NCBI GenBank assembly: GCA_001917535.1
Contig: MNEF01000098.1
Location: 45,241 to 109,240 of the forward strand
Direction of reading: 5' to 3'
DNA from: Candidatus Rokubacteria bacterium 13_1_40CM_69_27
GTDB lineage: Bacteria; Methylomirabilota; Methylomirabilia; Rokubacteriales; CSP1-6
Length of the DNA: 64,000 nucleotides
In this document: piece after piece, positions 8,512 to 60,025 of the stretch
Numbering within the stretch: position 1 is the first letter of the stretch
How the letters are laid out: each line of letters starts with the position of its first letter
Position numbers and translations under genes: made by a program
Notes under the pieces: model-generated
What the model saw: only the letters and a program-made list of their open reading frames with translations
What the model was told of the DNA's origin: nothing
The model's database searches: none

Positions 8512-8653
8512 ACCAGCCTCCCTCGGTGTCCGAAGCATTCGTGCCGCCCGCAGGGCGCCTCATTCTAGCGCGCTTGATCGTCAGCGGCCACGGCCAGCAT
8601 GCTAGAATTCGTGACGCCGGCGCTAGAGATTCTGTCCGATCGATGGAGGGCTC

Positions 8654-13518: not shown

Positions 13519-14057
13519 CTGCCGGCGTGGCGCTTGAGCAGGCTGTCGAAGTCCTCCACCGTCAGGCTCTCCGCCCATTCCACCGCCTCGGAGTCGTGGC
13601 CGTAAGACTCGGCCATGTAGGTCATCGCCTCCCGCTTCGTCGAGAAGAGCCGCCACAGGTGGCCGGGGCCGCCGCCCCGCCGCCGCAGGTGGAAGGCGGG
13701 ATCGGTGGGCGTCTGGGGCTGATAGGTGGTGCGCTGGCCGAAGCGATCCAGGGTGATCCAGGCCACGGCGATACCGTGCGCGGAGAGTACCCGCGTCCTC
13801 AGCGAGTCCTCGGGCGGGAGCGAGTCGATGTCGCGGAGCTGGGGCCCGTAGTAGACGGGGACGCCTTCGCCGGGCAGCGTGAGCCGCGCGCTGAGCGGCT
13901 CGCCGACCGAGTCGAGCAGCGCCTTGGACTCTTCGCTCACCCAGACGAGCCCGGGCGTATAGAGGTCGGCCCACGCCTCGATCACGCTGCCGGCGGGCAG
14001 CAGGGGGCGCCGCCTCGCGATCTCGTCTCCTCCGGCGATGAGATAGAGGCGTCTCAC
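13515..14057 (-). CDS. Hypothetical protein with no recognised domain, embedded in the methylcitrate-type operon
   Basis: The GTG at 14057 overlaps the prpF stop (GTGA) and its stop overlaps the plsC-like start. The protein reads VRRLYLIAGGDEIARRRPLLPAGSVIEAW... Confidence 0.5.
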   Translation of the reverse strand: MRRLYLIAGGDEIARRRPLLPAGSVIEAWADLYTPGLVWVSEESKALLDSVGEPLSARLTLPGEGVPVYYGPQLRDIDSLPPEDSLRTRVLSAHGIAVAWITLDRFGQRTTYQPQTPTDPAFHLRRRGGGPGHLWRLFSTKREAMTYMAESYGHDSEAVEWAESLTVEDFDSLLKRHAGR

Positions 14058-15154: not shown

Positions 15155-15157
15155 ATC

Positions 15158-15298
15158 CTCGGAGGGGGGTTACGCCCCCTTTCCTCCGTCGGAGGGGGCC
15201 GTCGAGGCCCCCTCCGAGATCCCTGGTCGGAAGGGGCCTCGCGGCCTCCTCCGAGCTACCCCAGAGGATTGCGCCGGCGGAGCCGGCGCTCGAAGCGT
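15158..15298. repeat. Cluster of three REP-like units plus the conserved tail, between the aconitase gene and prpF
   Basis: A degenerate unit at 15158-15188, the perfect unit tcggagggggcc gtcga ggccccctccga at 15189-15217, the variant tcggaaggggcc tcgc ggcctcctccga at 15227-15254, and the tail ccccagaggattgcgccggcggagccggcgctcgaa at 15256-15292. Confidence 0.85.
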
Positions 15299-15327
15299 CG
15301 TCGTCCCCCGCGCTGCGACCGATGGGG

Positions 15328-17247
15328 TCATCGCCGAGCGGAGCGGGTGTGGGCGAGGAGCCCACCGGCGAGGAGGATCTCGCGCTCGCGCGGCGTCAGC
15401 ACGCAGGAGGCCGCGAAGCCGCGCCCCGTGCGCGCGTTGACGACGGTCACGCGTGCGCCCGCCGCCAGGGCCGCGCGCAGCCCCTCGAGCCGGAGCCGGT
15501 CGTCGCGCTCGATATCGTCCCCGTCGCCGGGGTCGTCGCAGGTGAGGGGGACGATGCCCCAGTTGATGAGGTTGGCGCGGTGGATGCGCGCGAATGACCT
15601 GGCAATCACGGCGCGGACGCCCAGGTACATGGGCGCGACGGCGGCCACCTCGCGGGAGGAGCCCTGGCCGTAGAGCTCCCCGGCCACGATGATGCCCCGC
15701 CCGGCGGCCTTGGCGCGGGCCACGAACTCCGGGTCGACATACTTGAAGCAGAACTCGGCGATGGCCGGGATGTTCGAGCGGAAGATCAGGATGCCCGCCC
15801 CCGACGGGGAGATGTCGTCGGTCGAGACCTTGTCGCCGAGCTTCAGCAGTACGGGCGCCTCCAGCGTCTGGGCGACGGGCTCGCCGAGCGGGACCGGCTT
15901 GATGTTCGGGCCGCGCGCGACCTCGCCCTGGCCGTCGGCCTCGACCAGCCCGGCCGTCGACGCGGCGAAGCTCGCCGGCAGGCGCAGCGGCGGCTCGGGC
16001 CCGAGCGTGCGCGGATCGGTGATGACACCGGTCAGCGCCGAGGCGGCGGCGACCACCGACGAGCAGAGATAGACCTGATCGTCCTTGACGCCGCTGCGGC
16101 CGGGAAAGTTGCGGTTGAAGGCGCGCAGGCTCTTGGCCCCGCTGGCCGGCACGTGGCCGAGGCCCGGGCACGCGCCGCAGGTCGACTCGGAGACGGTGAC
16201 GCCGGCCTCCAGAAGATCGGTGAGCAGGCCCTCGCGGGCCATCGTTTCTAAAATTCGATGGCTGCCGGGGAAGAGAACGAACGAGACTGATGGGTGCACG
16301 CGGCGGGTCCTCAGAACGGCGGTGACCGATGCCATGTCGTGCCACGAGCCGTTCGTGCACGAGCCGACCATCACCTGCTCGACCGCCGTCCCCGCCACCT
16401 CCTCCACCGGCACCACGCGGTCGGGCGAGCCGGGCAGGGCGATCAGTGGCCCGACGGCGCCCAGGTCCAGCTCGAGCTGATCGTCGTAGGACGCGTCGTC
16501 ATCGGGCGCGGCCGGCCGCCAGTCGGCGCCGCGGCCGAGCCGCGACAGGTACGAGCGCGTGACCTCGTCGCTGGGAAAGACGCTCGTCGTGAGCGAGAGC
16601 TCGGCGCCCATGTTGGCGATGGTCATGCGCTGGGCCACCAGCAGGCTCTGGAGGCCCGGGCCGGCGTACTCGAAGATCTTGCCGCTCCCGCCGTGGACGC
16701 TCAGTCGGCGCAGCAGCTCGAGGATCACGTCCTTGGCGGTGACCCATGGACGCAGGGCGCCGCTCAGCCAGACGCGGACGACGGCCGGCATCGTGAAGAA
16801 GTAGGGGCCGCCGCCCATGGCCACCGCCACGTCGAGGCTGCCGGCGCCGATGGCGAGCATTCCCACCGCCCCGCAGAGCGGTGTGTGGCTGTCGCTGCCC
16901 AGCAGCGTCTGCCCCGGCACCGAGAAGGTCTCGAGGTGCACTTGATGGCAGATGCCGTTGCCGGGCTTGGAGAAGGTGGCGCCGTACTTCCGCGAGGCGG
17001 TGCCGAGATAGCGGTGGTCGTCGGAGTTCCGCGAGTCGAACTGGTAGACGTTGTGGTCGATGTAGGTGACGACCCGGGGGGCGGCCACCCGCTGGAAGCC
17101 CAGCGCCTCGAACTGGAGGAACGCCATGGTGCCGTTGGTGTCCGTCAGGAGGATCTGGTCCATGGCCAGGCCGATTTCTTCGCCCACGTCCAGCTTGCCG
17201 GCGGCCAGGTGGCTCCCGATCAGCTTGTGGGTGAGGCTCCGGCCCAT
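15328..17247 (-). CDS. Aconitase-family hydro-lyase (fused large and small subunit; candidate 2-methylcitrate dehydratase)
   Basis: 639 aa with an aconitase catalytic domain (GICHQVHLE..., GSDSHT, VGSCTNGSWHDM) and a C-terminal swivel domain. It lies between prpC and prpF. Confidence 0.8.
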   Translation of the reverse strand: MGRSLTHKLIGSHLAAGKLDVGEEIGLAMDQILLTDTNGTMAFLQFEALGFQRVAAPRVVTYIDHNVYQFDSRNSDDHRYLGTASRKYGATFSKPGNGICHQVHLETFSVPGQTLLGSDSHTPLCGAVGMLAIGAGSLDVAVAMGGGPYFFTMPAVVRVWLSGALRPWVTAKDVILELLRRLSVHGGSGKIFEYAGPGLQSLLVAQRMTIANMGAELSLTTSVFPSDEVTRSYLSRLGRGADWRPAAPDDDASYDDQLELDLGAVGPLIALPGSPDRVVPVEEVAGTAVEQVMVGSCTNGSWHDMASVTAVLRTRRVHPSVSFVLFPGSHRILETMAREGLLTDLLEAGVTVSESTCGACPGLGHVPASGAKSLRAFNRNFPGRSGVKDDQVYLCSSVVAAASALTGVITDPRTLGPEPPLRLPASFAASTAGLVEADGQGEVARGPNIKPVPLGEPVAQTLEAPVLLKLGDKVSTDDISPSGAGILIFRSNIPAIAEFCFKYVDPEFVARAKAAGRGIIVAGELYGQGSSREVAAVAPMYLGVRAVIARSFARIHRANLINWGIVPLTCDDPGDGDDIERDDRLRLEGLRAALAAGARVTVVNARTGRGFAASCVLTPREREILLAGGLLAHTRSARR

Positions 17248-17249
17248 GC

Positions 17250-18380
17250 TCAGCGCCGTGCCAACGGCACGAAGGCGCGCCGGCCCGCCCCGGTGTACTC
17301 GCCGCGCGGCCGGATCAGACGATTGTCGTCGTGCTGCTCGATGATGTTGGCGGTCCAGCCGGCGATGCGGCCGGCCGCGATGACCGGCGTGAAGAGATCG
17401 ACGGGGATCCCCAGCGAGTAGAAGAGGGGAGCCGAATAGAAATCGACGTTAGGGATCAGTCCCTTGGCTGCGCTGATCCGCTCGTGGAGCGTCACCGATA
17501 TTTGAAACCACTTGAACTGCCCCGACTGTCGGCACGCCTCCTCGGCCATCCCCCTGAGGATGGCCGCGCGCGGGTCACCCGCCCGGTAGACGCGGTGGCC
17601 GAAGCCCATGAGCCGCCGCTTGGTCCGGAGCGCGTCTTCGGTGAAGCGCTCCACGCTGGCGACCTCGCCGATCTCCAGGAGCGTGTGCATGACCGCTTCG
17701 CCCGCCCCACCGTGCAGAGGGCCCTTGAGAGCGCCCACGCCGCCGGCCACCGCCGAGTGCATGTCCGACTGCGTCGAGGTGATGACGCGCGTGGTGAAGG
17801 TGGACGCGTTCATCTCGTGCTCGGCGTAGAGCGTGAGGCTCGCGTCGAAGGCCTTGGCCGCCGTGGCCGAGGGGCGGACGCCGGTCAGCATGTAGAGGAA
17901 GTTGGCGGCGTGCCCGAGATCGGCCGCGGGCGTGACGGGTTCCTGACCGCCGCGGACGCGATGGTGGGCGCAGATCGCAATCGCGAGCTGACTGGCCACA
18001 CGCGCCGCCTTGCGGCGGTTGGCGTCGTGCGAGTTGTCGGTGGTGTCGGGATCGTGCATGCCCAGGATGGCCACGGCCGCCTGCAGCGCGCGCATGGGGT
18101 CGGTGGACCGCGGCATCAGCCGGAAGGCCTCGATCAGCTCGCGGGGGATCGACCGCGCCGAGATCAGCTCGCTGACGAAGCGATCGAGCTGCGGCTTGCC
18201 CGGCAGCTCGCCGTGCCAGAGGAGGTAGGCGACTTCCTCGAAGGTCGCCTGGCGCGCGAGATCCTCGATGTCGTACCCGCCGTAGGCGAGCCGGCCGTTC
18301 TTGCCGTCGAGGTCGCACAGCCGCGTCTCGGCGGCGACGACTCCCTCGAGCCCGCGGATCAACGAACTCCCTTCGCTCAT
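17250..18380 (-). CDS. prpC: Citrate synthase family protein, probably 2-methylcitrate synthase
   Basis: 376 aa containing GFGHRVY and the other conserved citrate synthase motifs. It is co-oriented with the aconitase-family gene and prpF. Confidence 0.85.
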   Translation of the reverse strand: MSEGSSLIRGLEGVVAAETRLCDLDGKNGRLAYGGYDIEDLARQATFEEVAYLLWHGELPGKPQLDRFVSELISARSIPRELIEAFRLMPRSTDPMRALQAAVAILGMHDPDTTDNSHDANRRKAARVASQLAIAICAHHRVRGGQEPVTPAADLGHAANFLYMLTGVRPSATAAKAFDASLTLYAEHEMNASTFTTRVITSTQSDMHSAVAGGVGALKGPLHGGAGEAVMHTLLEIGEVASVERFTEDALRTKRRLMGFGHRVYRAGDPRAAILRGMAEEACRQSGQFKWFQISVTLHERISAAKGLIPNVDFYSAPLFYSLGIPVDLFTPVIAAGRIAGWTANIIEQHDDNRLIRPRGEYTGAGRRAFVPLARR

Positions 18381-18462
18381 GGCCGGCTCCTCGTGAGGGC
18401 TCTACGGTAGACTGGGGGTCCGCCCCGCGCAAGACCGGGCGGCCGCGTGTATCCTCGGCCCG

Positions 18463-22238: not shown

Positions 22239-23909
22239 TTATGTGAACGAGGGATCGATGCGGACGTCGATCAGGTACGGGCCCCCGCTGCGCAGGCCCC
22301 GCGTCAGCGCCGCCGGCACCTCGCCGGCCTTCTCGACGTGCTCGCCGGGCACCCCCAGCGAGCGCGCCAGGCCGACCCAGTCGATGGGCGGCCGGTCGAG
22401 GTCCATGCCCACATAGCGGTCGTCCTCGGCCGAGAAGCCCTTGAGGGCGAGCGTGCGCTGCTTGAGGATCCGGTACGACGCGTTGTTGAAGATGACGTAG
22501 ACGACGCCGAGCCCTTCCCGGGCGGCCGTCCACAGCCCCTGGCTCGTGTACATCGCGCTACCGTCGCCGACCAGCGCGATCACCGGGCGCCGGGGCAGCG
22601 CCAGCTTGACGCCCAGCGCCGCCGGGAGCCCCCAGCCGATCCCGCCGCCCCGGAGGCCGAAGAAGCTCTTGGGATCGGCGCAGCGGAGGAGCTGGCGCAG
22701 GCCGTGGCCGGACGAGATCGACTCGTCGATGATGGTGACGTCGTCGGGGACGCTGGCGGCGATCGCCTGGACCAGGCTCAGCGACGACATCGGGATCTGC
22801 CGGGCCTCCCGCTGCGCGCGCTCGGTCAGCTCCGCGCGCATCCGTTCGTGGGCCGCCCGCGCCGCCTCCCGCCGCTTCGGCGCCTCGGCATGGCCGTGCG
22901 TCGTCGTGTGGCGGCGCAGCGCCTCGGAGAGCTCGGGCAGCGTCGCTTTGGGCTCGCCGTGGATGGCGACGGCGGCGGGATAGTTCTTGCCCAGCTCCCA
23001 GGGGTTCACGTCCAGGTGCACGATGCGGAGGCCGGGGGGCATCGGATCGACGTCGTCGGGCAGCGAGAGCGTGAAGAGGTCGCCGCCCACCGAGAAGAGA
23101 AGATCGTGGCTCATCAGCAGCGCCCTGATCTGAGGGCCCAGGCGCGGCATCGGGCCAGCGTACTGAGGATGCGTGAACGGGAAGCTGCAGGTGGAAGACA
23201 CGCACTCGGTGACGACCGGACAGCCCACCAGCTCGGCCAGCTCCACGATCTCGCCGAGCGCGTCGCCGTGGGCCACGGCGTCGCCGGCGACGAGCAGGGG
23301 CTGCTCGGCCTTCGCCAGCAGCGCGGCGGCCCGATCGATCGCCTGGTGATCGCCGACGATGCGCGGCGCCACCCGGGTGGAGGCCAGGAGATCGACGTCG
23401 CGCTCGGCGTTGAGGACGTCGACCGGCAGCGAGAGGAACACCGGGCCCGTCGGGTGGGCCAGCGCGGTTTTCGTGGCACGCCGGACGATCCGGGGCAGGT
23501 CCTCCAGGCGGCGCACCTCGGTGGACCATTTGACGAAGGGCTCGGCGACCGGCGGCAGCTCGGCCCAGAGGATCGGCTCCGTGGCCGTGAAGGACTGGTC
23601 GTGCTGCCCGGCGGTCAGGAGCATGGGCGCGCCCGACTTGCGCGCGTTGTAGAGCATGCCCATCGCGTTGCCGAGACCCGGCGCGATGTGCACGTTCACC
23701 GCGGCCAGCCCGCCGCTGGCCAGGGCGTAGCCATCGGCCATCGCGATGGCCACGGCCTCCTGGAGCGCCAGCACGTAGCGGATCCGCGGCTCGCGCGCCA
23801 GCCCGTCCATCAGCGGCAGCTCGGTCGTCCCCGGGTTGCCGAACATGACGGAGACGCCTTCTTGGGCGAGGATCTCGAGGAACGCCTGCTTGCCGGAGGT
23901 CAGTGGCAT
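22239..23909 (-). CDS. Thiamine-pyrophosphate-dependent enzyme (benzoylformate decarboxylase/acetolactate synthase family)
   Basis: It has an N-terminal TPP Pyr domain (FGNPGTTELPLMDGL) and a C-terminal PP domain (GDGSAMYTSQGLWTAAREGLGVVYVIFNN). The start is the ATG at 23909 (MPLTSG) or the tracked 23948. Confidence 0.8.
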   Translation of the reverse strand: MPLTSGKQAFLEILAQEGVSVMFGNPGTTELPLMDGLAREPRIRYVLALQEAVAIAMADGYALASGGLAAVNVHIAPGLGNAMGMLYNARKSGAPMLLTAGQHDQSFTATEPILWAELPPVAEPFVKWSTEVRRLEDLPRIVRRATKTALAHPTGPVFLSLPVDVLNAERDVDLLASTRVAPRIVGDHQAIDRAAALLAKAEQPLLVAGDAVAHGDALGEIVELAELVGCPVVTECVSSTCSFPFTHPQYAGPMPRLGPQIRALLMSHDLLFSVGGDLFTLSLPDDVDPMPPGLRIVHLDVNPWELGKNYPAAVAIHGEPKATLPELSEALRRHTTTHGHAEAPKRREAARAAHERMRAELTERAQREARQIPMSSLSLVQAIAASVPDDVTIIDESISSGHGLRQLLRCADPKSFFGLRGGGIGWGLPAALGVKLALPRRPVIALVGDGSAMYTSQGLWTAAREGLGVVYVIFNNASYRILKQRTLALKGFSAEDDRYVGMDLDRPPIDWVGLARSLGVPGEHVEKAGEVPAALTRGLRSGGPYLIDVRIDPSFT

Positions 23910-23974
23910 GGGGGCCCGATCATAAACCCGCAGCTCGCTTGATTCCAAGGGGGGTGCCCGGTACGCTCTCAGGC

Positions 23975-25012
23975 GTGCCGGCCACGGATGGTGCTCTCCT
24001 CCGCGCGGCGCGCCGCGAACCGACTCCCTACACGCCGGTGTGGCTCATGCGCCAGGCCGGGCGCTATCTGCCAGAATACCGAGCGATGCGGGCGCGGTAC
24101 GGCTTCCTCGAGCTGTGCCGCAACCCGGAGGCGGCCGCGGAGGTGACGCTGCAGCCCGTCGGGCGCCTCGGGGTCGACGCGGCGATCCTCTTCGCCGACA
24201 TCTTGCTGATCGTGGAGCCGCTCGGCGTCGGCCTGGAGTTCTCGAGAGGCGAGGGGCCGGTCATCGCGCGCCCCATCCGGCAGGAGGTGGATGTCGGCCG
24301 CCTCAAGCCCATCGACGTGGCCAGCGGGGTACCATTCGTCTTCGAGACGGTGCGGAAGGTTGTTCGCGCGCTGGGCGGCCGCGTGCCCCTCATCGGCTTC
24401 GCGGGCGCGCCGTTCACCGTCGCCTCGTACCTGGTCGAGGGAGGGCCGTCGCGCCACTACCTGCACACGAAGCGTCTCATGTACGAGGCGCCGGAGGCCT
24501 GGCATCGCCTGATGGAGCTGCTGGCCGACGCCACCGCGCGCTATCTGAACGGGCAGATCGCGGCGGGCGCCCAGGCCGTCCAGCTCTTCGACTCCTGGGT
24601 GGGCGTGCTGAGCCCCGCCGACTACCGCGCGTTCGTGCTGCCGCACGTGCGAGCGCTGCTCAAGGCGCTGACGCCGGGCGCCCCCGTCATTCACTTCGGC
24701 ACCGGCACGGCCGCATTGCTCCCGCTCATGCGCGAGGCGGGCGGCAACGTCATCGGCCTCGACTGGCGCGTGGACCTCGACGCCGCCTGGGCCACGGTCG
24801 GGCACGACATCGCGGTCCAGGGCAATCTCGATCCCGCCGTGCTGCTGGCCAAGCCGTCCTATATAAGGGAACGGGCCAAAGAGGTCCTGGCGCGGGCCGG
24901 GGGTCGGCCGGGTCATATCTTCAACCTCGGCCACGGCGTGCTCCCTGACACGCCCGTCGAGCACGTGAAGGCGCTCGTCGACATCGTCCACGAGCTCTCC
25001 GACCGTCGATGA
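23975..25012 (+). CDS. hemE: Uroporphyrinogen decarboxylase
   Basis: The protein reads TPVWLMRQAGRYLPEYRA...FAGAPFT.... The GTG at 23975 gives a typical HemE N-terminus. The tracked ORF began at 23903. Confidence 0.85.
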   Translation: MPATDGALLRAARREPTPYTPVWLMRQAGRYLPEYRAMRARYGFLELCRNPEAAAEVTLQPVGRLGVDAAILFADILLIVEPLGVGLEFSRGEGPVIARPIRQEVDVGRLKPIDVASGVPFVFETVRKVVRALGGRVPLIGFAGAPFTVASYLVEGGPSRHYLHTKRLMYEAPEAWHRLMELLADATARYLNGQIAAGAQAVQLFDSWVGVLSPADYRAFVLPHVRALLKALTPGAPVIHFGTGTAALLPLMREAGGNVIGLDWRVDLDAAWATVGHDIAVQGNLDPAVLLAKPSYIRERAKEVLARAGGRPGHIFNLGHGVLPDTPVEHVKALVDIVHELSDRR

Positions 25013-26124
25013 TCGAGGCGGTACTGCTGATCGCCTTCGGTGGGCCCACGGCGCCCGACGAGATTCGGCCGTTCCTCCGCAACGTGGCGCGCGGCCGCGC
25101 CGTCCCGGCGGCGCGACTGGAGGAGGTGGCGCATCACTACGAGCGGATGCCCGGTGGCCGCTCGCCGCTCAACGAGCTGACGGTCCGCCAGGCCCGCGCT
25201 CTCGCCGAGACACTCGCCGCTGACGGCCCCGCGCTTCCGGTCTTCGTCGGCATGCGCAACTGGCACCCGTACCTGCACGAGACGCTGGCCGAGATGGCCG
25301 GCCAGGGGATCCGGCGAGCGCTGGGCATCATCCTGTCACCGCTCCGCACGGAGGCGTCGTGGGAGCGCTACCTGCGGGACGTCGCCGAGGCCCGCGCCCA
25401 GACGCCCACCGCGCCGGAGGTGGTCTTCGCGCCGGCCTGGTTCGAGCACCCGCAGTTCGTCGCCGCCGCCGCCGATCGCTGCCGGCGCGCGCTGGACGAA
25501 GTGCCCCCCGGCGAGCGCGCGGCGACGCCGCTCGTCTTCACCGCCCACAGCGTTCCGGTCCCGATGGCCGAGGCGTCGCCGTACGTCGCCGATTTCGCGG
25601 CGGCCGCGGGCGCAGTCGCGGCGGCGCTCGGGCGCGCGCGCTGGTCCCTCGCCTACCAGAGCCGGAGCGGGAGCCCGCGCGACCGGTGGCTGGAGCCCGA
25701 CGTCAACGATGTCCTGAAGGAGCTGGCGCGGCAGGGTGCGCCGCACGTCGTCGTCGTCCCCCTCGGCTTCGTGTGCGACCACGTCGAGGTGCTTTACGAT
25801 CTCGACGTCGAAGCGCGCGCGACCGCCGCCACGGTGGGCCTCATCCTCCACCGCGCGGCCGCTGTCAACGATCATCCCGACTTCATCGCCGCGCTGGCCG
25901 ATCTCGTGCGCCGTCACGTCGCCGAGGGCGACGCTGCGCGGGCCGGGCAGGCCCGAGCGCCCTCCTCGACCACGCAATCCACGCCGCGGCCTTCGCCCTC
26001 TTCCAGCGCTCGCTTCCCTCAACCCCCTGAGACACGGGTCTCGGAGGGCGCATCCGGCCCGCCTGGCCCGCGCCCCCCGTCCCCCGGCGAGACGGCGCCC
26101 ACGCGTCGGCGAGGGCGGCGGTGA
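25009..26124 (+). CDS. hemH: Ferrochelatase with a Pro/Ser-rich C-terminal tail
   Basis: The protein reads MIEAVLLIAFGGPTAPDEIRPFLRNV...VVVVPLGFVCDHVEVLYDLD. Its stop overlaps the hemY GTG start. Confidence 0.85.
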   Translation: MIEAVLLIAFGGPTAPDEIRPFLRNVARGRAVPAARLEEVAHHYERMPGGRSPLNELTVRQARALAETLAADGPALPVFVGMRNWHPYLHETLAEMAGQGIRRALGIILSPLRTEASWERYLRDVAEARAQTPTAPEVVFAPAWFEHPQFVAAAADRCRRALDEVPPGERAATPLVFTAHSVPVPMAEASPYVADFAAAAGAVAAALGRARWSLAYQSRSGSPRDRWLEPDVNDVLKELARQGAPHVVVVPLGFVCDHVEVLYDLDVEARATAATVGLILHRAAAVNDHPDFIAALADLVRRHVAEGDAARAGQARAPSSTTQSTPRPSPSSSARFPQPPETRVSEGASGPPGPRPPSPGETAPTRRRGRR

Positions 26125-27536
26125 AGGTGGTGGTCGTCGGGGGCGGCATCACCGGACTGGCCTGCGCCCACCGTGCGGTGGAGATCGCGCGGGAACGCGG
26201 CATCGAGCTCGAGCTCACGCTGCTGGAGGCGCGCGAGCGACTCGGGGGGACGATCGAGACCGAACGAACCGGCGGCTTCCTGATCGAGGCCGGCCCCGAT
26301 TCCTTCCTGTCCGAGAAGCCGTGGGCGCTCGCACTCTGCCGGCGCCTGGGGGTGGTGGATCGGCTCGTACCGACCGACGATCGCTTCAGGAAGACGTTCG
26401 TGTGGTTCCGGGGACGTCTGCACCCCTTGCCCGAGGGCTTTCAGCTCCTGGCGCCGGCCCGCTTCGGCCCCTTCATCACCTCCGGCCTCTTCTCGTGGCC
26501 AGGCAAGCTGCGCATGGCGCTCGATCTGCTGCTGCCGCGCGGGATCCCCGGCGAGGACGAGAGCCTGGGCTCGTTCGTGCGGCGGCGGCTCGGACGGGAA
26601 GCGCTCGAGCGCGTCGCCCAGCCGCTGGTGGCGGGCATTTACACGGCCGATCCGGACGAGCTGAGCCTCGCCGCCACCATGCCGCGCTTCCTCGAGCTCG
26701 AGCGTCGGGAGCGGAGCCTGATCCTCGCCCTCTGGCGCGCGCGCCGCCGCGCGCCGGCGACGGCCGAAGGGACGAGCGGAGCGCGCTGGAGCCTCTTCGT
26801 CACCTTCGCCGACGGGATGGGGGAACTGGCGGAGGCGCTGGCCGGACGCTTGCCGCCGGGAGCCGTGCACCTCAAGCACCGCGTGGACGGGATCGAGCGC
26901 GGCGGTCGCTGGCGGATCGATCTCGGTGCCGGCGGCGCGCTCGAAGCCGACCGCGTGGTCGTCGCCACCGAGGCCCACGGGGCCGCTCGCCTGCTCCGGT
27001 ACGTCGATCCGCCGCTGGCGACGATGCTCCAGATGATTCCGTACGCCTCGTCGGCCACCGTGTCGCTCGGCTATCGGCGCGCCGACATCCCCCATCCGCT
27101 CGATGGCTTCGGCTTCGTGGTGCCGCGCGTGGAGGGCCGCCAGCTGCTGGCGTGCACCTTCGCGAGCGTCAAGTACCCGGGGCGGGCCCCAGAGGGCGGA
27201 GCGCTCCTGCGCTGTTTCCTCGGCGGCGCCCTGAACGCCGCGGTGCTGGAGCGGGACGACGGCGAGCTCATCCAGCGGGCCAGAGAGGAGCTGAGCGCGG
27301 CGCTCGGCGTCACCGCCGAGCCGGTGCTCGCCCGGGTGGCGCGCCATCCCTTCGCGATGCCGCAGTACGGTGTGGGCCACCGCAAGAGCGTCGAGGCGAT
27401 CGAGCGCCGGCTCGAGACGGCGCCCGGCCTCGCGCTCGCCGGGGCCGCCTACGGGGGCGTGGGCATCGCCGACTGCGTGAGGTCGGGCGAGAGCGCCGCC
27501 GAGCGTGTCCTCCTCGGCCGAGCCCACGAGGGCTGA
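26121..27536 (+). CDS. hemY: Protoporphyrinogen oxidase (FAD-dependent HemY/PPOX type)
   Basis: 471 aa with a GTG start and a dinucleotide-binding motif VVVVGGGITGLACA. It has full-length PPOX-family similarity. Confidence 0.85.
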   Translation: MKVVVVGGGITGLACAHRAVEIARERGIELELTLLEARERLGGTIETERTGGFLIEAGPDSFLSEKPWALALCRRLGVVDRLVPTDDRFRKTFVWFRGRLHPLPEGFQLLAPARFGPFITSGLFSWPGKLRMALDLLLPRGIPGEDESLGSFVRRRLGREALERVAQPLVAGIYTADPDELSLAATMPRFLELERRERSLILALWRARRRAPATAEGTSGARWSLFVTFADGMGELAEALAGRLPPGAVHLKHRVDGIERGGRWRIDLGAGGALEADRVVVATEAHGAARLLRYVDPPLATMLQMIPYASSATVSLGYRRADIPHPLDGFGFVVPRVEGRQLLACTFASVKYPGRAPEGGALLRCFLGGALNAAVLERDDGELIQRAREELSAALGVTAEPVLARVARHPFAMPQYGVGHRKSVEAIERRLETAPGLALAGAAYGGVGIADCVRSGESAAERVLLGRAHEG

Positions 27537-46856: not shown

Positions 46857-47375
46857 GTGGATCTCCACGAGACGAAGGACCGGGTCGCCGTCGCCTTGGT
46901 GGAGTCGATCTTCCGCCGGGCCCGCTACCGCGTGCGGCCCTTCGACGCGGATGGAACGAAGCCCCGATTCGTCCGCGAGGACTTCGCGCCGAGCTTCTTC
47001 GTCTTCGTCCCGGGGCCGGAGGGCGCCGAGCGCGAGTTCCTGATCGACGTCACCTATCGGCCCTTCGTCGAGCAGTTCATCGCGCTCGAGAACAAGCGCC
47101 GGGACTCCTCGATCTTCGTCCTGGCCCGGCGTCACTGGCCGGCGCTGCACTTCGTGCTCGTCACCGATCATCCCGGAGCCGGCCGCTCCTGCTTCCAGGC
47201 CGTCACGCTGGGTGAACGCGGCGCCGAGGTGAGGCTCCGCACGGTCGACCTCGTCGATCTCGCCGAGTTCGGCGTCTTCCCGCACAACGTCGCGGATCAC
47301 GAGGAGCTGCTGCTCCGGATCTTCGCGATGCTCTCGGCCGACCGGCACCGTCGCGAGCAGCCGCACGCCGGCTAG
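46857..47375 (+). CDS. Hypothetical protein, no recognised domain
   Basis: 172 aa with a GTG start, reading VDLHETKDRVAVALVESIFRRARYRVRPFDADG.... Confidence 0.4.
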   Translation: MDLHETKDRVAVALVESIFRRARYRVRPFDADGTKPRFVREDFAPSFFVFVPGPEGAEREFLIDVTYRPFVEQFIALENKRRDSSIFVLARRHWPALHFVLVTDHPGAGRSCFQAVTLGERGAEVRLRTVDLVDLAEFGVFPHNVADHEELLLRIFAMLSADRHRREQPHAG

Positions 47376-47410: not shown

Positions 47411-47683
47411 ATGAACGAGGACCCGGACAGCAACCGACGAACGCACCTCGTGATGGTGTGGACGACCCTCCTGTGGCTGTTCGGGACTGTGGCGTACGCC
47501 TACACCTACATCCTACATCGGGTAAGTCTGCCAGACGCCGTCGGCTATGAAGCCGACTGGTCGTGGCAGCTGTTTTTCTTCTCCCTCGTCCGCCTTCCGC
47601 TCTTGATAGCGGGTCTCGTTGCCGTTCTTTGCCTCGAGCGTGTGCTTTGGTCGCGCTGGGGGGCTGCCAGCCGTGCCGCCTAA
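47411..47683 (+). CDS. Small hypothetical membrane protein (90 aa, 2 TM)
   Basis: MNEDPDSNRRTHLVMVWTTLLWLFGTVAYAYTYIL...QLFFFSLVRLPLLIAGLVAVLCL. Its GC content is visibly lower (about 58-60%) than the surrounding region (about 70%). Confidence 0.4.
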   Translation: MNEDPDSNRRTHLVMVWTTLLWLFGTVAYAYTYILHRVSLPDAVGYEADWSWQLFFFSLVRLPLLIAGLVAVLCLERVLWSRWGAASRAA

Positions 47684-48379: not shown

Positions 48380-49075
48380 TCAGGCGAACGCGCGGGCGAT
48401 GGCGAAGGCGGCGCCGGCGGCCAGCCCGCCGATCAGCGCCGTCTGGAGCGCGCTCCGCGCGGGCGGCGCCCCGGTGAAGCGCGCCTTGATGTACCCGAAG
48501 ACCAGCAGGGCCACGATGGTGACGACGACCGAGACCGTCAGGGCGCTGGTCGCCTTGGGGAAGACGATGTACGGCCAGAGCGGGATGAGCCCGCCCATGA
48601 CGTAGGCGCCGCCGATCGTCAGCGCGCTCGCCAGCGCCCGGCCTGGATCGGGCCGCTCGAGGCCCAACTCGAAGCGCATCATGAAGTCGACCCACCCCTC
48701 CGGGTGCCGTTTCAAGGCGTCGACGAGGGGCCGGGCCTCTTCCGCCTTGACGCCGTAAGTCTCCAGGACCTCGACCACTTCCGCCGCCTCCGCCTCGGGC
48801 TTCTCGCGGACCTCGCGCTGCTCGCGCCGGCGCTCGCTCTCATAATGCTCGGCGTCGCTCCGGGCCGCCAGGTAGCCGCCGAGGCCCATGGCCAGAGCGC
48901 CGGCGGCGATCTCGGCGAGTCCCGCCACCACGATGATCCACGTGGCGTCAATGACCCCCGTGAGCCCCGCCGCCAGCGCGAAGGGCACGGTCAGCCCGTC
49001 CGCCATGCCGAGCACGAGGTCGCGCACGGTCCGGTTGCCCGTGAAGTGCCGCTCGGGGTGCGCCACCGGAATCAT
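48380..49075 (-). CDS. VIT1/CCC1 family iron/manganese transporter
   Basis: The start is the ATG at 49075 (MIPVAHPERHF...DLVLGMADGLTVPFALAAGL). It has a central acidic cytoplasmic helix region (EVREKPEAEAAEVVEVLETYG). Confidence 0.75.
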   Translation of the reverse strand: MIPVAHPERHFTGNRTVRDLVLGMADGLTVPFALAAGLTGVIDATWIIVVAGLAEIAAGALAMGLGGYLAARSDAEHYESERRREQREVREKPEAEAAEVVEVLETYGVKAEEARPLVDALKRHPEGWVDFMMRFELGLERPDPGRALASALTIGGAYVMGGLIPLWPYIVFPKATSALTVSVVVTIVALLVFGYIKARFTGAPPARSALQTALIGGLAAGAAFAIARAFA

Positions 49076-49602
49076 CCCTCGATGGACGCGATGCCGTGCT
49101 TGTGGCGCTGGGCCAGGGCTTGGTAACCGGTGGGATTGGCGCGCACCCAAAACTCGGCCGGGGTCCCGGCCAGGGGCCCCTTGATCTTGGCGGGCGCGCC
49201 GAGGGCGAGCATGCCCTCCGGAATCTCGGTGCCCGGTGTGACCAGGGCGCCGGCGGCGATCATGGCTCGCGCTCCGATCCGGGCGCCGTCGAGGACGGTC
49301 GCCCCGTTGCCGACGAGCGCTTCCTCACCGAGGGTGGCGCCGTGGACCACGCAGGTGTGACCGATCGTCGCGCCGGCACCCACTTCCACCGGATTGACGG
49401 GCGTCACATGGACGACGGCGCAGTCCTGGACGTTGGCGCCCCGCCGGATGACGATCGGACCAAAGTCAGCCCGGATGACGGCGTTGTACCAGATGGAGGC
49501 GTTCTCCTCGACCGTGACGTCGCCGATCAGGACCGCGGTCGGCGCGATGAACGCGGACGGGTGCACGTGGGGGTGCTTTCCCTCGAAGCTGAACAGTGGC
49601 AT
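49072..49602 (-). CDS. Gamma-class carbonic anhydrase / hexapeptide-repeat (CaiE/PaaY-like) protein
   Basis: 176 aa reading HPSAFIAPTAVLIGDVTVEENASIWYNAVIRAD with left-handed beta-helix repeats. Confidence 0.8.
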   Translation of the reverse strand: MPLFSFEGKHPHVHPSAFIAPTAVLIGDVTVEENASIWYNAVIRADFGPIVIRRGANVQDCAVVHVTPVNPVEVGAGATIGHTCVVHGATLGEEALVGNGATVLDGARIGARAMIAAGALVTPGTEIPEGMLALGAPAKIKGPLAGTPAEFWVRANPTGYQALAQRHKHGIASIEG

Positions 49603-49675
49603 GGGGCGGGCCCTCGCAGTATGCTCGGAATCGGTTCCTATCTTACGCGAAGTCCTTCGGGCGATGGAGGGTGGA

Positions 49676-50701
49676 ATGCCGATGCCGAGGATCGCCGCCG
49701 TGGCGACGGCGACGCCCCCCTACCGGTTCACGCAGTCCGACCTGCTGGCGCTGTCCGGCTACACCGACGCGCAGCGCCGCGGCTTCTTCGAGCGCAGCGA
49801 GATCGAGAGCCGCTTTCTCTACATCGACCCCCGGCGCTTCCGTCCCGACGAGAGCGTGGATGAGCTGCAGGACCGCTTTCGGCGCGGCGCGCTGGAGCTC
49901 TCGGAGGCGGCGGCGCGGGGGGCGCTGGCGCGGGCCGGCTGGACGGCGGGCGACGTGGACTTCGTGGCCACCACCACCTGCACCGGGCGCCTCACCCCCA
50001 GCCTGGACGCTCACCTGATCGGGCGCCTCGGCTGTCGGGCCGACGTCCAGCGCGCGCACATCGGTGACACCGGCTGCGCCTCCGCGATGGTGGCGCTGCA
50101 GCAGGCGTGGAATCATCTCCACGCCTTCCCGGAGCACCGCGCGCTCGTGGTGGCGGTGGAGATCTGCTCGGCCGCGTACTTCCTCGATCAGCGCCTGGAG
50201 TCGGCGGTCGCCCACGCCATTTTCGCCGACGGCGCCGGAGCCCTGGCGCTGTCGGCTACCGGCCAGGGCCCTGCCGTCGTGGCCCACCGCACGCTCTTCA
50301 GACCCGAGCATCTCGACGCCATGGGCTTCGAGTATCCCGGCGGCCGCCCCCGGGTGGTCCTCTCCAAGGACGTGCGTCGCATCGGCGCCGGCATGCTCGA
50401 CGAGATGACGAAGGTGTTGATGGACGCGCAGGGGCTCAAGCGCGAGGATATCCGCCACTGGATCCTGCACTCGGCGGGGCGGCGCGTGCTCGATCGCGCG
50501 CGCGTGCTGCTCGCGCTCACCGAGGAGCAGATGGCGCACGCGCGGGCGGTGCTGAGAAAGTACGGCAACATGTCATCGGCGACGATCCTCTTCGTGCTCG
50601 AGGAGATGCTACGCGCCGAGTCGACGGTGCCGGGCGACTGGGGGCTCATGATCGGCCTCGGGCCCGGGTTCGCGGCCGAGGGCGCCCTGCTCAGATGGTA
50701 G
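49676..50701 (+). CDS. Type III polyketide synthase (chalcone/stilbene synthase family)
   Basis: It has the Cys-His-Asn triad context (TTTCTGRLTPSLDAHL, GCASAMVALQQA, ILHSAGRRVL, GPGFAAEGALLRW). The ATG at 49676 has a GGAGGG site 4 nt upstream, with alternatives at 49664 and 49682. Confidence 0.85.
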   Translation: MPMPRIAAVATATPPYRFTQSDLLALSGYTDAQRRGFFERSEIESRFLYIDPRRFRPDESVDELQDRFRRGALELSEAAARGALARAGWTAGDVDFVATTTCTGRLTPSLDAHLIGRLGCRADVQRAHIGDTGCASAMVALQQAWNHLHAFPEHRALVVAVEICSAAYFLDQRLESAVAHAIFADGAGALALSATGQGPAVVAHRTLFRPEHLDAMGFEYPGGRPRVVLSKDVRRIGAGMLDEMTKVLMDAQGLKREDIRHWILHSAGRRVLDRARVLLALTEEQMAHARAVLRKYGNMSSATILFVLEEMLRAESTVPGDWGLMIGLGPGFAAEGALLRW

Positions 50702-50824
50702 TGCGAGCCGCAGGACGGCCGGGGGCGGGGGCCCCCGCGTCCGAGGCGAGCCGATGAATCGAGTGGTGCGAGCCGCAGGACGGCCGGGGGCGGGGGCCCC
50801 CGCGTCCGAGGCGAGCGGTGTCCC

Positions 50825-51499
50825 ATGGTGATGCAGCGCGCGGAGGGAGCGATCGAGTATCTGGACCGGCCCGTGCCGTGGGCGGATCGCGACGCCTCGC
50901 TCGACGACATCGATCGCCTCAACGCCTGGTTCGGCGGCTACTGGCTGACGCTGCGCGAGGTCCGCCGCCTCGCCGGGGCGGCGGCGGCCGGGCCGGCGCT
51001 GCTGGTCGTCGACGTCGGCGGCGGCCGGGGGGACTTTGCCCACCGGCTGATCGACTGGGCCCGGCGCGGGGGACGCGCGGTCCGCGTCGTCGTGGTCGAC
51101 CGGGAGTGCGCGGGCGACGGCGCCGGCATTCTCCGGGTGAGGGCGGACGCGACGGCGCTGCCCTTCCGGGAGGGCGCGGCCGACGTCGTCACGGCGTCGC
51201 TGACGCTCCACCACCTCGAGCCCGACGCCGCGGTCGCGTCGCTGCGGGAGATGCGGGCGACGGCGCGCGGGGCGGTGGTGGTCAACGACCTGCTACGCTC
51301 GCGGCTCACGCTGGGGCTCGTGTGGCTGGTGACGCGGCTCTTCTGCCGCCACCGCTTCTCGCGCCACGACGGGCCGCTCTCGGTCCGCCGCGCGTATGCG
51401 GCGGAGGAACTGCGGGTGCTGGCCGACAAAGCCGGCCTCGCGCGCGTGGCGATCCGGCGCTATCCGTGGCTCGGCCGGATCGTGGCGGTGCTGGCATGA
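50825..51499 (+). CDS. Class I SAM-dependent methyltransferase
   Basis: It has SAM motif I, VVDVGGGRGDF. It is coupled to the downstream gene by an ATGA overlap. Confidence 0.75.
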   Translation: MVMQRAEGAIEYLDRPVPWADRDASLDDIDRLNAWFGGYWLTLREVRRLAGAAAAGPALLVVDVGGGRGDFAHRLIDWARRGGRAVRVVVVDRECAGDGAGILRVRADATALPFREGAADVVTASLTLHHLEPDAAVASLREMRATARGAVVVNDLLRSRLTLGLVWLVTRLFCRHRFSRHDGPLSVRRAYAAEELRVLADKAGLARVAIRRYPWLGRIVAVLA

Positions 51500-52698
51500 G
51501 GCCGGGGGCGGACGTCATCGTCGTCGGCGCCGGCCCAGCCGGCGCGGCGACCGCCATCCTCCTGGCGGAGCGGGGCCTCGAGGTCCTCGTGCTCGACCGG
51601 GCCAAGTTCCCCCGCCCGAAGATCTGTGGCGAGTATCTGAGCCCCGAGGCCGTGCGCATCCTCGACGGCCTCGGCGTGCTCAAGGCCCTCGACGCGGCCG
51701 GCGCGGCGCTGGTGATGGGCATGCGGATCACCGCCCCCGACGGCACGGTCGTCGCCGGTACCTATCGTCCGGTGGGGCCGTGGCAGCCCTATCGAGGGCA
51801 CGCGATGGGGATCACGCGCTCGAGGCTGGACGGCGCGCTGGTCGATCGGCTCCGTGCCCTGCCCGTGGACTTCCGCGAGCAGGTGCGCGTCACCGACGTG
51901 CTCGGCGACGGTGACCGGATCGTCGGCGTCGAGGCCATCGACGTCGAGGGGCGCCGGCGCACCTTTCGCGCGCCGTTGGTGGTGGGCGCCGATGGCCGGG
52001 CCTCGGTGATCGCCCAGCGGCTGGGGTGCCGCCGACCCCACCGCCTGCGGCGCATGGCCCTCGTCACCTACGTGGCGGGGCTGCCGGACTGCCGCGACGC
52101 CGGCGAGATCTTCGTGGACCCGCCCGACTACGCGATCCTGAACCCGCTGTCGCCCGACCGCGTGAACATGAGCGTCGTCGTCCCGCTCGAGCACGTGACG
52201 CCGTGGAGCGATCGGCTGGACGTCTTCTTCGCCGCGCGCGTCAGGCAGTTGCCGCATCTGGCCCGGCGCGTGAGCGGCGCCGAGCGGGTCGCGCCGGTGC
52301 AGGCGATGGGGCCGCTCGCCTACCGGGTGCGGCCGCCGCGGGTGGGGGGCGTGTTGCTGGTCGGCGACGCCGCCGGCTTCTACGACCCGCTGACGGGCGA
52401 GGGCGTCTTCAGCGCCCTGCGCGCGGCCGAGCTGGCGGCGGAGACGGCTGCGCAGGCGTTCCGGGTGGGCGACTGGTCGGCGGCGACGCTGGCCGCCTAT
52501 GAGCGGGCCCGGCGCGCCTGCTTCGGCGACAAGGAGCGCTTCGTCCGGGCGCTCCAGGCCGTCATCCGGCGTCGCTGGCTGGCGAACGTCGCGGCGCGCG
52601 CCCTGGCGCGCCGCCCGGCACTCCTCGACCTCCTGCTCGGTGTCGCCGGCGACTACGTTCCAGCCCGCGCGTTGCTGGCCGGTCTCCGGACGCGTTGA
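51496..52698 (+). CDS. FAD-dependent oxidoreductase (geranylgeranyl-reductase/flavin monooxygenase family)
   Basis: The start is the ATG at 51496 (MRPGADVIVVGAGPAGAATA, a dinucleotide-binding motif). It also has GDAAGFYDPLTGEG. The 225-aa N-terminal extension of the tracked ORF is rejected. Confidence 0.8.
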   Translation: MRPGADVIVVGAGPAGAATAILLAERGLEVLVLDRAKFPRPKICGEYLSPEAVRILDGLGVLKALDAAGAALVMGMRITAPDGTVVAGTYRPVGPWQPYRGHAMGITRSRLDGALVDRLRALPVDFREQVRVTDVLGDGDRIVGVEAIDVEGRRRTFRAPLVVGADGRASVIAQRLGCRRPHRLRRMALVTYVAGLPDCRDAGEIFVDPPDYAILNPLSPDRVNMSVVVPLEHVTPWSDRLDVFFAARVRQLPHLARRVSGAERVAPVQAMGPLAYRVRPPRVGGVLLVGDAAGFYDPLTGEGVFSALRAAELAAETAAQAFRVGDWSAATLAAYERARRACFGDKERFVRALQAVIRRRWLANVAARALARRPALLDLLLGVAGDYVPARALLAGLRTR

Positions 52699-52771: not shown

Positions 52772-53437
52772 ATGGCGAGGTCTGCTGACAACCTGCCGCG
52801 GAGATTCGGCAAGCTCCCCACGCCCGCTGTCACCGACGTGATGGACGAGATGGGGCTGCCGCGGCAGACCCTGCCGTCCACGATCCAGCCCCTCACCGCC
52901 GACATGCGCCTGGCCGGTTACGCGTTCACCGCGCGGGGCCGCCCGCATCGAGGCCCCCCGCGCGAGCGCGATCAGACGCTGCGGCAGTTCTTGAAGATGC
53001 TGGGAGCGGTACCCAGCGACTCGGTCCTCGTGCTGGCGGCCAACGACAACATGGCCGCCCACTTCGGCGAGCTGTCCGCCCACTGGTTCCGCGCCCGGCG
53101 CGTGCGAGGGGCCGTGATCGACGGCGCCACCCGGGACGCCGCCGCCATCGGCCGGCTCCGCTTCCCGACCTTCGTGCGCTACCGCACGCCTCAGGACTCG
53201 GTGCCGCGCTGGCGGGTGACCGACTGGGGGCTGCCGCTGACCATCGGGGGGGTGCGCGTGAGCCTGGGCGACATCATCGTTGCCGACGTCGACGGCGTCG
53301 TCGTCGTCCCCCGCCGTGTCGCCCACCAGGTGCTGATCCGCTCCGAGAAGCTCGTGGGGGCCGAGAACAAGGTGCGTTCCGCCGTGCGCCGGGGGATGAC
53401 GCCGCTGCAGGCGTACGAGAAGTTCGGGAGCTTCTAG
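52772..53437 (+). CDS. RraA family protein (RNase E inhibitor/4-hydroxy-4-methyl-2-oxoglutarate aldolase fold)
   Basis: 221 aa reading AVIDGATRDAAAI...DGVVVVPR. There is a GAGGAG site upstream of the ATG. Confidence 0.75.
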   Translation: MARSADNLPRRFGKLPTPAVTDVMDEMGLPRQTLPSTIQPLTADMRLAGYAFTARGRPHRGPPRERDQTLRQFLKMLGAVPSDSVLVLAANDNMAAHFGELSAHWFRARRVRGAVIDGATRDAAAIGRLRFPTFVRYRTPQDSVPRWRVTDWGLPLTIGGVRVSLGDIIVADVDGVVVVPRRVAHQVLIRSEKLVGAENKVRSAVRRGMTPLQAYEKFGSF

Positions 53438-59915: not shown

Positions 59916-60025
59916 GCAGGCTCGCCTCGCGTACCGAGCACGCTGCGGCTTCGCACGAATGGTCTCAGGCTCGCCTCGGACGGGCGGGATTCTCCGGGTT
60001 CGCTCGCCTCGGGCGCAGGGGCCCA
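59916..60025. repeat. Direct-repeat family 2 (three units) at the truncation point of a CoA-transferase remnant
   Basis: caggctcgcctcgcg at 59916, caggctcgcctcggacgggcggg at 59966 and ttcgctcgcctcgggcgcaggggcc at 59998. The last unit is almost identical to 13088-13109. Confidence 0.7.

Follow-up and report, generated by a model that had tools for sequence, protein, structure and literature searches.

A putative phenolic polyketide cassette of Rokubacteria related in its enzyme families to the hidABC and planctomycetal mtr-fdo-t3pks operons

We analysed a group of three adjacent genes lying in a 64,000-nucleotide stretch of contig MNEF01000098.1 from Candidatus Rokubacteria bacterium 13_1_40CM_69_27 (assembly GCA_001917535.1, positions 45,241 to 109,240; this whole stretch is hereafter called the window, and its first letter is position 1). 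The genes encode a type III polyketide synthase (PKS), a methyltransferase (MT) and a flavin adenine dinucleotide (FAD)-dependent oxidoreductase, referred to below as the flavoprotein, all assigned through Pfam and NCBIfam:

49676-50701, plus strand: type III PKS, 341 amino acids (aa)
50825-51499, plus strand: class I S-adenosylmethionine (SAM)-dependent MT, 224 aa, of a PRK06202-like family
51496-52698, plus strand: FAD-dependent oxidoreductase, 400 aa, of the geranylgeranyl-reductase superfamily

A sequence-only reading of the window had already described three co-directional, linked genes at 49676-52698, the last two overlapping by ATGA, and had assigned them to these three enzyme classes; its coordinates proved exact, and the Pfam and NCBIfam matches bear out the classes, with an agreement far stronger than chance would give. 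The ATGA at 51496-51499 comprises the stop codon of the MT gene and the overlapping start of the flavoprotein gene. As the window has a G+C content of about 71%, open reading frames are plentiful in all six frames, and coding frames were picked out by their third-position GC, which is 0.90-0.92 in the three cassette frames. The same three products were obtained from independent gene calls on four near-identical sibling contigs. Moreover, the MT protein is sequence-identical on contigs of the Candidatus Rokubacteria assemblies GCA_001920475.1 and GCA_001918005.1, and the flavoprotein is identical to AUH29_13515, labelled hypothetical protein [Candidatus Rokubacteria bacterium 13_1_40CM_69_27]. 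An actinomycete origin, to which the high G+C content had pointed, was rejected on the organism names of these matches and of the nearest PKS homologues. For the PKS, an alternative in-frame ATG is present at 49664.

Judged from its sequence, the first protein is a type III PKS of the chalcone synthase superfamily with an intact active site. It matches Chal_sti_synt_N, Chal_sti_synt_C, FAE1_CUT1_RppA and ACP_syn_III_C in Pfam and NCBIfam (E 1e-11 to 1e-21), and its catalytic triad, C134/H265/N298, aligns with those of Pks11, Pks18 and THNS. The triad is invariant in all 13 Rokubacterial PKSs that were aligned with references, and the motifs around it are at least 95% conserved over 75 sequences; immediately after the catalytic histidine, HSAG stands where HPGG is usual. 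The closest homologues are all labelled Rokubacteria, Rokuibacteriota or Methylomirabilota, while the top relative with a solved structure is Pks11 of Mycobacterium tuberculosis (E 6e-44), followed by Ectocarpus PKS1 and Pks18. The key positions of the enzyme were taken from Reiter et al. and mapped via the alignment to Pks18 and a multiple alignment, the ArsB Trp281 position being located through Pks18 Leu266. The acyl-tunnel residues Thr144/Cys205/Ala209 of Pks18 correspond to Thr103/Cys164/Tyr168 in the window PKS, a trio that resembles the Thr/Cys/Phe found in the phenolic-lipid synthases BpsA and CepA and is identical to the Thr/Cys/Tyr of Pks11, itself a phenolic-lipid synthase (Reiter et al.). 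The position governing cyclisation is occupied by Trp281 in ArsB (resorcinol), by Gly284 in ArsC and by Leu266 in Pks18 (pyrone) (Reiter et al.); in the window PKS it is occupied by Phe218. Phenylalanine was found there in each of the 13 aligned Rokubacterial PKSs, within an AMGF motif at least 95% conserved over the 75 sequences, as against tryptophan in 8 of the 11 aligned reference PKSs and tyrosine in DpgA and THNS. The references bearing tryptophan include both PKSs from cassettes that also carry MT and FAD genes, and both PKSs linked to an isoprenylcysteine-carboxyl-methyltransferase (ICMT)-family protein.

The sequence-only reading had proposed a phylogeny of the PKS against known clades as a check on its assignment to alkylresorcinol synthesis, and here the outcome did not support it. 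In a bootstrapped neighbour-joining tree (unrooted and distance-based; 13 Rokubacterial PKSs and 11 references, with no HidC sequence), the Rokubacterial enzymes formed a clade of their own (100% bootstrap), fell into no reference clade and had DpgA as their nearest branch. The split between {Rokubacteria + DpgA} and the ten other references (Pks11, Pks18, THNS, Ectocarpus PKS1, and the enzymes of Paludisphaera borealis, Paenibacillus, the srs-type cassette, Azospirillum, Rhizobium etli and Brevibacillus) received 98% bootstrap. A small, unrooted distance tree of this sort allows no conclusion beyond the placement of the PKS outside the clades sampled. In pairwise comparison, too, the PKS matches DpgA, the 3,5-dihydroxyphenylacetyl-CoA synthase, best (37.5% identity in the alignment; 37% by tblastn, E 6e-49), and the DpgA model NF042429 scores 238.8 bits on it, under the family cut-off of 425.

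These data bear on an alternative in which the PKS would be DpgA-like, using malonyl-CoA or a short starter to form a small non-lipid aromatic of the dihydroxyphenylacetyl or phloroglucinol type, which the MT and the flavoprotein would turn into a soluble methoxy-hydroquinone or a cofactor precursor. DpgA is indeed the nearest and best-scoring named relative of the PKS (239 bits) and forms a resorcinol-type ring; the tree split joins the two, and they share a serine after the catalytic histidine as well as an aromatic residue other than tryptophan at position 218. However, the score lies far under the cut-off, the neighbours are an MT and a flavoprotein with no DpgB/C/D-type genes in the operon, and there is no glycopeptide context. 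The apparent closeness is, in addition, inflated, as NF042429 is the sole product-specific type III PKS model among the NCBIfam matches, and the tree that supports it is unrooted with few references. Furthermore, for the two non-Rokubacterial cassettes combining MT, FAD and PKS genes, as for the hid and planctomycete operons described in the literature, the PKS is known or presumed to synthesise long-chain alkylresorcinols, and the same Thr/Cys/Tyr tunnel is found in the phenolic-lipid synthase Pks11. We therefore regard a DpgA-like function as unlikely.

The second gene product is, according to its predicted structure, a soluble Rossmann-fold class I enzyme, PRK06202-like in family and Coq5-like in fold. 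It matches Methyltransf_25 and Methyltransf_11 in Pfam and PRK06202 at E 5e-33; PRK06202/NF004851 is its sole substantial NCBIfam match, at 114 bits against a cut-off of 243. The same model, which was the only or best NCBIfam match in all four MTs scanned, gave 232 bits for the MT of P. borealis, 151 for that of Paenibacillus and 172 for that of Chloroflexota (cut-off 243), these being relatives that are described below. The family alignment highlights the following motifs, given by protein position:

128-130 of the MT: LHH
154-160 of the MT: NDLxRSR
180-191 of the MT: RHDGPLSVRRAY

The family is large, with 1562 cluster representatives at E<=1e-10, and a search by sequence for solved relatives of the MT returned none. 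The AlphaFold model of the protein (pLDDT 94) found its best solved fold in yeast Coq5 (4OBW; TM 0.67), the quinol C-methylase of ubiquinone synthesis, followed by natural-product O- and C-methyltransferases.

As for the flavoprotein, it matches FAD_binding_3 (E 6e-32) and the geranylgeranyl-reductase superfamily model TIGR02032 (GG-red-SF; E 7e-42), the latter with 144.2 bits, below the curated threshold of 158.8, and its next NCBIfam match is the monooxygenase QhpG (117 bits). TIGR02032 was the best match in all five FAD proteins scanned and QhpG the second in four of them, including that of the window; for the P. borealis protein, MenJ scores marginally above QhpG. The motifs recognised in its sequence are:

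51496-52698, plus strand: flavoprotein motifs GxGxxG, FPRPKICGEYLSP, ADGRAS, DPPDYAILNP and GDAAGFYDPLTGEG

Among these, the N-terminal motif FPRPKICGEYLSP is of the reductase/MenJ type. Pro39, Lys42 and Cys44, as well as the DG and GD motifs, are invariant in the 10 flavoproteins compared, the srs-type protein included. Sequence and fold thus assign the flavoprotein to the geranylgeranyl-reductase superfamily and do not decide between a hydroxylase and a reductase. If it were a reductase of the geranylgeranyl-reductase or MenJ type, the cassette would yield no quinone, but an alkylresorcinol or alkylpyrone that is methylated and reduced in its side chain or ring. The N-terminal motif and the best profile match lean this way, but the TIGR02032 score is below cut-off, a saturated fatty-acyl side chain would offer no obvious double bond, and the srs-type "FAD-dependent monooxygenase" has the same motifs and profile matches. 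A reductase would also fit only the UbiA context in which relatives of the flavoprotein occur (see below), whereas a hydroxylase fits both the PKS and the UbiA contexts, and we consider the reductase function to be quite improbable.

The solved structures nearest to the flavoprotein are those of phenol and pyrrole halogenases, though the halogenase motifs are absent. At the position of the halogenase WxWxIP motif (WSWIIP in Bmp2, WVWMIP in CmlS) the window protein has DYAILNP, and WxWxIP was found in none of the 10 related flavoproteins. The halogenase lysine (FPxKxG; Bmp2, ChlB4, CmlS) aligns with Val73 in the window and with Leu or Arg in other Rokubacteria, and the N-terminal motif resembles that of geranylgeranyl reductases (KICGE), not that of halogenases (xIGES). 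With its defining motifs absent, a halogenase function was rejected, and that the flavoprotein halogenates the phenolic ring strikes us as extremely improbable in spite of the structural neighbours. In the literature, no halogenase has been identified in the producer of the chlorinated hierridin C, where the only flavoenzyme of the cluster is HidB, a homologue of the flavoprotein; the coincidence of this product with the halogenase-like nearest structures may be fortuitous.

In order to determine how widely the cassette is conserved, we scanned one genome per species for the MT motif RHDGPLSV[RL]R and examined the best 80 of the 441 loci, nearly all of which came from Rokubacteria/Methylomirabilota. 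Using tblastn with the window proteins, at least 75 Rokubacteria/Methylomirabilota loci were found to carry all three genes. Two context genes flank the cassette in the window:

49072-49602, minus strand: hexapeptide-repeat protein (gamma-carbonic-anhydrase/PaaY-like), divergent from the PKS gene
52772-53437, plus strand: RraA-like/aldolase-family protein, 73 nt downstream of the flavoprotein gene and co-directional with it

The hexapeptide-repeat protein gene adjoins the PKS gene in nearly all Rokubacterial loci, and the order hexapeptide-repeat protein (minus), PKS, MT and flavoprotein (plus), M23 peptidase (minus) and NuoL/Mrp-like protein (plus) is kept in practically all loci of sufficient length. 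The RraA-like gene follows the cassette in the closer Rokubacterial relatives; because it is missing from the more distant loci, it was not counted in the cassette and probably lies outside it. Identities to the window proteins among the Rokubacterial loci amounted to 66-82% for the PKS (74 loci), 43-69% for the MT and 57-76% for the flavoprotein, and 43% of the PKS positions are at least 95% conserved, about level with neighbouring primary-metabolism genes. Intergenic gaps are small or negative in most Rokubacterial loci (extrapolated medians over 75 loci: about 10 nt from PKS to MT and about -4 nt from MT to flavoprotein), and the PKS and MT genes overlap or abut in about one third of the other Rokubacterial loci. 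From the synteny of the cassette and its flanks in about 75 loci, a fixed, vertically inherited locus and conserved lineage trait appears to fit better than a sporadic biosynthetic island. The sequence-only reading had seen here a small specialised-metabolite cluster for membrane phenolic lipids; a tailored phenolic polyketide in general terms still stands, while the notion of an isolated island does not, given a locus syntenic in about 75 genomes.

Eight contigs (L013, L030, L048, L061, L063, L071, L079 and L080) display the Rokubacteria-type gene order (partial in L013) and a G+C content of 69-72%, while their public metagenome-assembled genomes are labelled Acidoferrum, Binatia, Verrucomicrobiia, Nitrosotalea (an archaeon), Dormiibacterota, Limnocylindria and Deferrimicrobiaceae. 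These contigs are probably mis-binned.

Such conservation could also reflect mere synteny of housekeeping genes, the three having no pathway in common. The whole neighbourhood, with the hexapeptide-repeat protein, the M23 peptidase and the NuoL/Mrp-like antiporter, is conserved in Rokubacteria, and synteny within the phylum alone is therefore no proof of a functional link. Nevertheless, the three families are also adjacent in a planctomycete and in a Bacillota genome, in another order and with other flanks, the genes overlap or nearly abut, and the MT-flavoprotein pair is kept together in Chloroflexota, which makes a chance neighbourhood very improbable. We read the genes as parts of one pathway because the three families are adjacent in unrelated phyla, in different orders, and because of the ATGA overlap in the window and the small gaps in the Rokubacterial loci.

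The evidence from other phyla came in part from tblastn searches of plasmid records, which disclosed the trio in Paludisphaera borealis (Planctomycetota; L089) in the order MT-FAD-PKS, and in Paenibacillus cellulosilyticus in the order PKS-MT-FAD. The window and P. borealis proteins share 40% identity for the MT (E 3e-23), 27% over 368 residues for the flavoprotein (E 2e-18) and 32% for the PKS (E 5e-41), and both flavoproteins have the FPRPK(I/V)CG motif and TIGR02032 as best match. Milke et al. (2024) reported a three-gene operon of this kind at 58 planctomycetal loci, with P. borealis PX4 in the genome set (PMC10896814). In that work, the operon PKSs make C15/C17 alkylresorcinols, a single methyl group, probably a C-methyl, is added when the MT and FAD genes of Gimesia maris are co-expressed, and the operon proteins show 48-55% identity to cyanobacterial HidABC (PMC10896814). 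HidA O-methylates 5-pentadecylresorcinol and HidB is a proposed hydroxylase (PMC6836626).

The same three families are thus adjacent in hidABC (hierridin B, Cyanobium sp. LEGE 06113), in the planctomycetal mtr-fdo-t3pks operons (Gimesia maris, Rhodopirellula baltica) and in the window, where a PRK06202-like MT lies beside the PKS and a FAD protein of the same family beside the MT. The window order, PKS>MT>FAD, is shared by some cyanobacterial hid-like clusters, in which hidC>hidA>hidB also occurs (PMC8086630). Unlike the planctomycete PKS, that of the window belongs to a separate tree group and has Phe218 in place of tryptophan; the window cassette is linked to hid through the P. borealis operon and the published 48-55% planctomycete-Hid identity. 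As far as enzyme families can tell, the cassette is related, though divergent, to hidABC of cyanobacteria and to the mtr-fdo-t3pks operons of planctomycetes.

The sequence-only reading had likened the arrangement to the srsABC operon of Streptomyces griseus. The order PKS-MT-flavoprotein is indeed that of srsABC, of pkqABC (Mycobacterium smegmatis) and of agq, together with a logic of ring formation, methylation and hydroxylation leading there from alkylresorcinol to alkylquinone. SrsB is a membrane ICMT-type MT. As an srs/agq-type comparator we used a plasmid cassette of Streptomyces sp. NBC_00184 (L091), in which UbiA is followed by a PKS, an ICMT-family protein and a FAD monooxygenase. Unlike this ICMT-family enzyme, the window MT is of class I; the two share no similarity (best E 3.1), and the cassette thus does not have the membrane MT typical of srsABC. 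The flavoproteins of the two cassettes fall into the same broad superfamily (TIGR02032 best for both) but are remote (29% over 282 residues, E 2e-7, as measured against the comparator's monooxygenase), and the PKSs are 33% identical. Hence, the likeness to srsABC holds for gene order and does not extend to the MT family, and the flavoprotein is a remote relative of the comparator's monooxygenase.

A second resemblance that had been suggested, to the Azotobacter vinelandii arsABCD cluster, finds no support beyond the involvement of a type III PKS in making phenolic lipids. In the ars cluster, two type III PKSs are fed by dedicated type I fatty acid synthases (ArsA/ArsD), and no MT or flavoprotein is known to belong to it. 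No second PKS, fatty acid synthase or PKS-I gene was found among the genes flanking the cassette within about 15 kb, and an ars-like cluster was rejected on the ground of the single PKS and the lack of a type I fatty acid synthase nearby. Closer in organisation is cepAB of "Entotheonella", also a small operon of a type III PKS and a class I MT, lineage-wide in an uncultured group and with phenolic lipids as its proposed products; unlike the window cassette, the cep cluster is without a flavoprotein gene and has variable surroundings, and CepA has tryptophan at the cyclisation position. From these comparisons the cassette appears hid-like in parts and srs-like in logic alone, with no ars likeness, because P. 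borealis and Paenibacillus share its MT and FAD families whereas the MT of the srs-type comparator is unrelated.

The nearest relatives that we found for the MT and the flavoprotein outside the phylum are on five Chloroflexota contigs, with 38-42% identity to the window flavoprotein (199-235 bits, against 72 for the planctomycete protein) and 33-40% to the MT (109-134 bits). The order there is (UbiA)-MT-FAD-START/SRPBCC-FabF-type ketosynthase, with UbiA upstream in three of the five and SRPBCC and FabF downstream in all five; no type III PKS was found in any of these clusters:

L085, 4035-8756: Chloroflexota cluster
L086, 3892-8731: Chloroflexota cluster
L093, 4069-8709: Chloroflexota cluster
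L087, 5001-8873: Chloroflexota cluster
L094, 2404-6108: Chloroflexota cluster

By its gene content the cluster resembles a small prenyl-quinone tailoring set. Overall, cassettes of PKS, MT and flavoprotein are already known from cyanobacteria and planctomycetes. What is new here is (i) the host phylum, (ii) an apparently separate clade of PKSs, marked by Phe218 and HSAG, (iii) the fixed position in about 75 genomes, and (iv) the link of the MT-FAD pair to a PKS-less, often UbiA-containing Chloroflexota cluster. A full-text literature search returned no functional work on Rokubacterial type III PKSs, both terms co-occurring only once or twice per paper, and a search for the combination of type III PKS, methyltransferase and geranylgeranyl reductase found nothing.

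Taking these lines of evidence together, we lean, if only modestly, towards a three-gene operon that builds and decorates a phenolic polyketide, with a methylated alkyl-hydroxyphenol, hydroquinone or benzoquinone of the membrane as its predicted end point. In such a pathway, the PKS would start from an acyl thioester, most likely that of a long-chain fatty acid, and extend it with malonyl-CoA on Cys134 before closing a six-membered ring, most likely a resorcinol and less likely a pyrone; analogy and the tunnel residues both speak for a long-chain starter. The Coq5-fold MT would then methylate the ring, on oxygen or on carbon; Coq5, its best solved fold match, is a quinol C-methylase. Finally, the flavoprotein of the geranylgeranyl-reductase superfamily would act as a ring hydroxylase. 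A hydroxylase is favoured because it is the only activity making chemical sense both beside a PKS and beside a UbiA prenyltransferase, because the srs-type and Hid relatives are annotated as, or proposed to be, enzymes of this activity, and because the srs-type "FAD-dependent monooxygenase" belongs to the same superfamily with the Lys-x-Cys, DG and GD motifs.

Several observations weigh against this proposal. On the side of the PKS, Phe218 stands at the ArsB Trp281 position in place of the resorcinol-favouring tryptophan, so the type of ring is uncertain; the enzyme appears to fall outside the clade of the planctomycete and Paenibacillus PKSs, and its nearest reference in the tree, DpgA, is a malonyl-starter enzyme. 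Among the flanking genes, neither an acyl-AMP ligase nor an acyl carrier protein gene was found beside the cassette. As regards tailoring, the flavoprotein is by score equally near to reductases, halogenases and hydroxylases, and the G. maris FAD homologue had no detectable activity in Corynebacterium (PMC10896814). Lastly, the closest MT-FAD relatives outside the phylum occur without a PKS, and the pair is therefore not tied to alkylresorcinols specifically.

Within the cassette, the PKS and MT genes are separated by a spacer with a repeat:

50701-50816, plus strand: PKS-MT spacer with a 65-nt tandem duplication, defined by sequence and sibling-contig comparison

The spacer holds a 65-nt unit carrying a GC-rich core of about 51 nt, followed by a second copy of the 51-nt core, and the palindrome GCGGGGGCCCCCGC is common to both copies. 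One copy is present in sibling contig L003 and two in the window, L001, L002 and L004. A 90% identical copy of the element lies at 13123-13171, with fragments near 13087-13109 and 59968-60024; because the copy and the fragments sit in other intergenic regions, the element looks, in sequence terms, like a polymorphic dispersed repeat of the REP (repetitive extragenic palindromic) type. No sigma-70-like promoter was found in the cassette region and no terminator-like site inside the cassette; two terminator-like matches near 49155-49180, within the hexapeptide-repeat protein gene, are no more than shuffled sequences give. A search of the window against Rfam matched no family.

The remainder of the window encodes ordinary core metabolism. 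The sequence-only reading had described it as rich in fatty-acyl-CoA genes that could provide starter units, a claim that we could not sustain, the count being one acyl-CoA dehydrogenase, one enoyl-CoA hydratase, one family III CoA-transferase and one short-chain dehydrogenase/reductase. Other genes encode methylcitrate-cycle enzymes, three haem-synthesis enzymes, amino-acid transporters, a dihydroxy-acid dehydratase, cell-wall recycling enzymes and a NuoL/Mrp-type protein. PrpF, aconitase-family and citrate-synthase-family proteins are grouped at 14054-18401 (minus strand) and resemble a methylcitrate-cycle (propionate) set, and a row at 23849-27536 (plus strand), with uroporphyrinogen decarboxylase, ferrochelatase and an amine-oxidase-family protein (protoporphyrinogen/coproporphyrinogen oxidase type) in series, resembles a haem-synthesis operon. 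A 755-aa protein at 8627-10894 (plus strand) combines a metallo-beta-lactamase fold with cyclic-nucleotide-binding and GGDEF diguanylate cyclase domains, and two conserved small open reading frames at 46857-47375 and 47411-47683 (plus strand; 172 and 90 aa) show good codon bias and no Pfam match.

Rokubacteria, whose genomes are large, are abundant in soil and uncultured. That the cassette, which is self-contained and spans about 3 kb, keeps one chromosomal position in many of these genomes suggests a structural or redox function in the membrane and not an occasional antibiotic. Precedents exist in the polyketide quinones of mycobacteria and Streptomyces and in the conserved cep cluster of "Entotheonella". 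A wider interpretation, which we put forward as a possible but doubtful extension, is that the cassette is a core Rokubacterial pathway to a polyketide-derived methylated alkyl-quinol or quinone serving as a membrane redox carrier or antioxidant, the MT-FAD pair being a module of general use for turning lipophilic phenols into methylated quinols. If true, this module would be fed by a type III PKS providing an alkyl tail in Rokubacteria, planctomycetes, cyanobacteria and Paenibacillus, and by UbiA providing a prenyl tail in Chloroflexota. The comparison across phyla itself shows that the hid-type MT-flavoprotein pair can combine with different ring-forming or tail-attaching enzymes, which offers a handle on the role of the flavoprotein.

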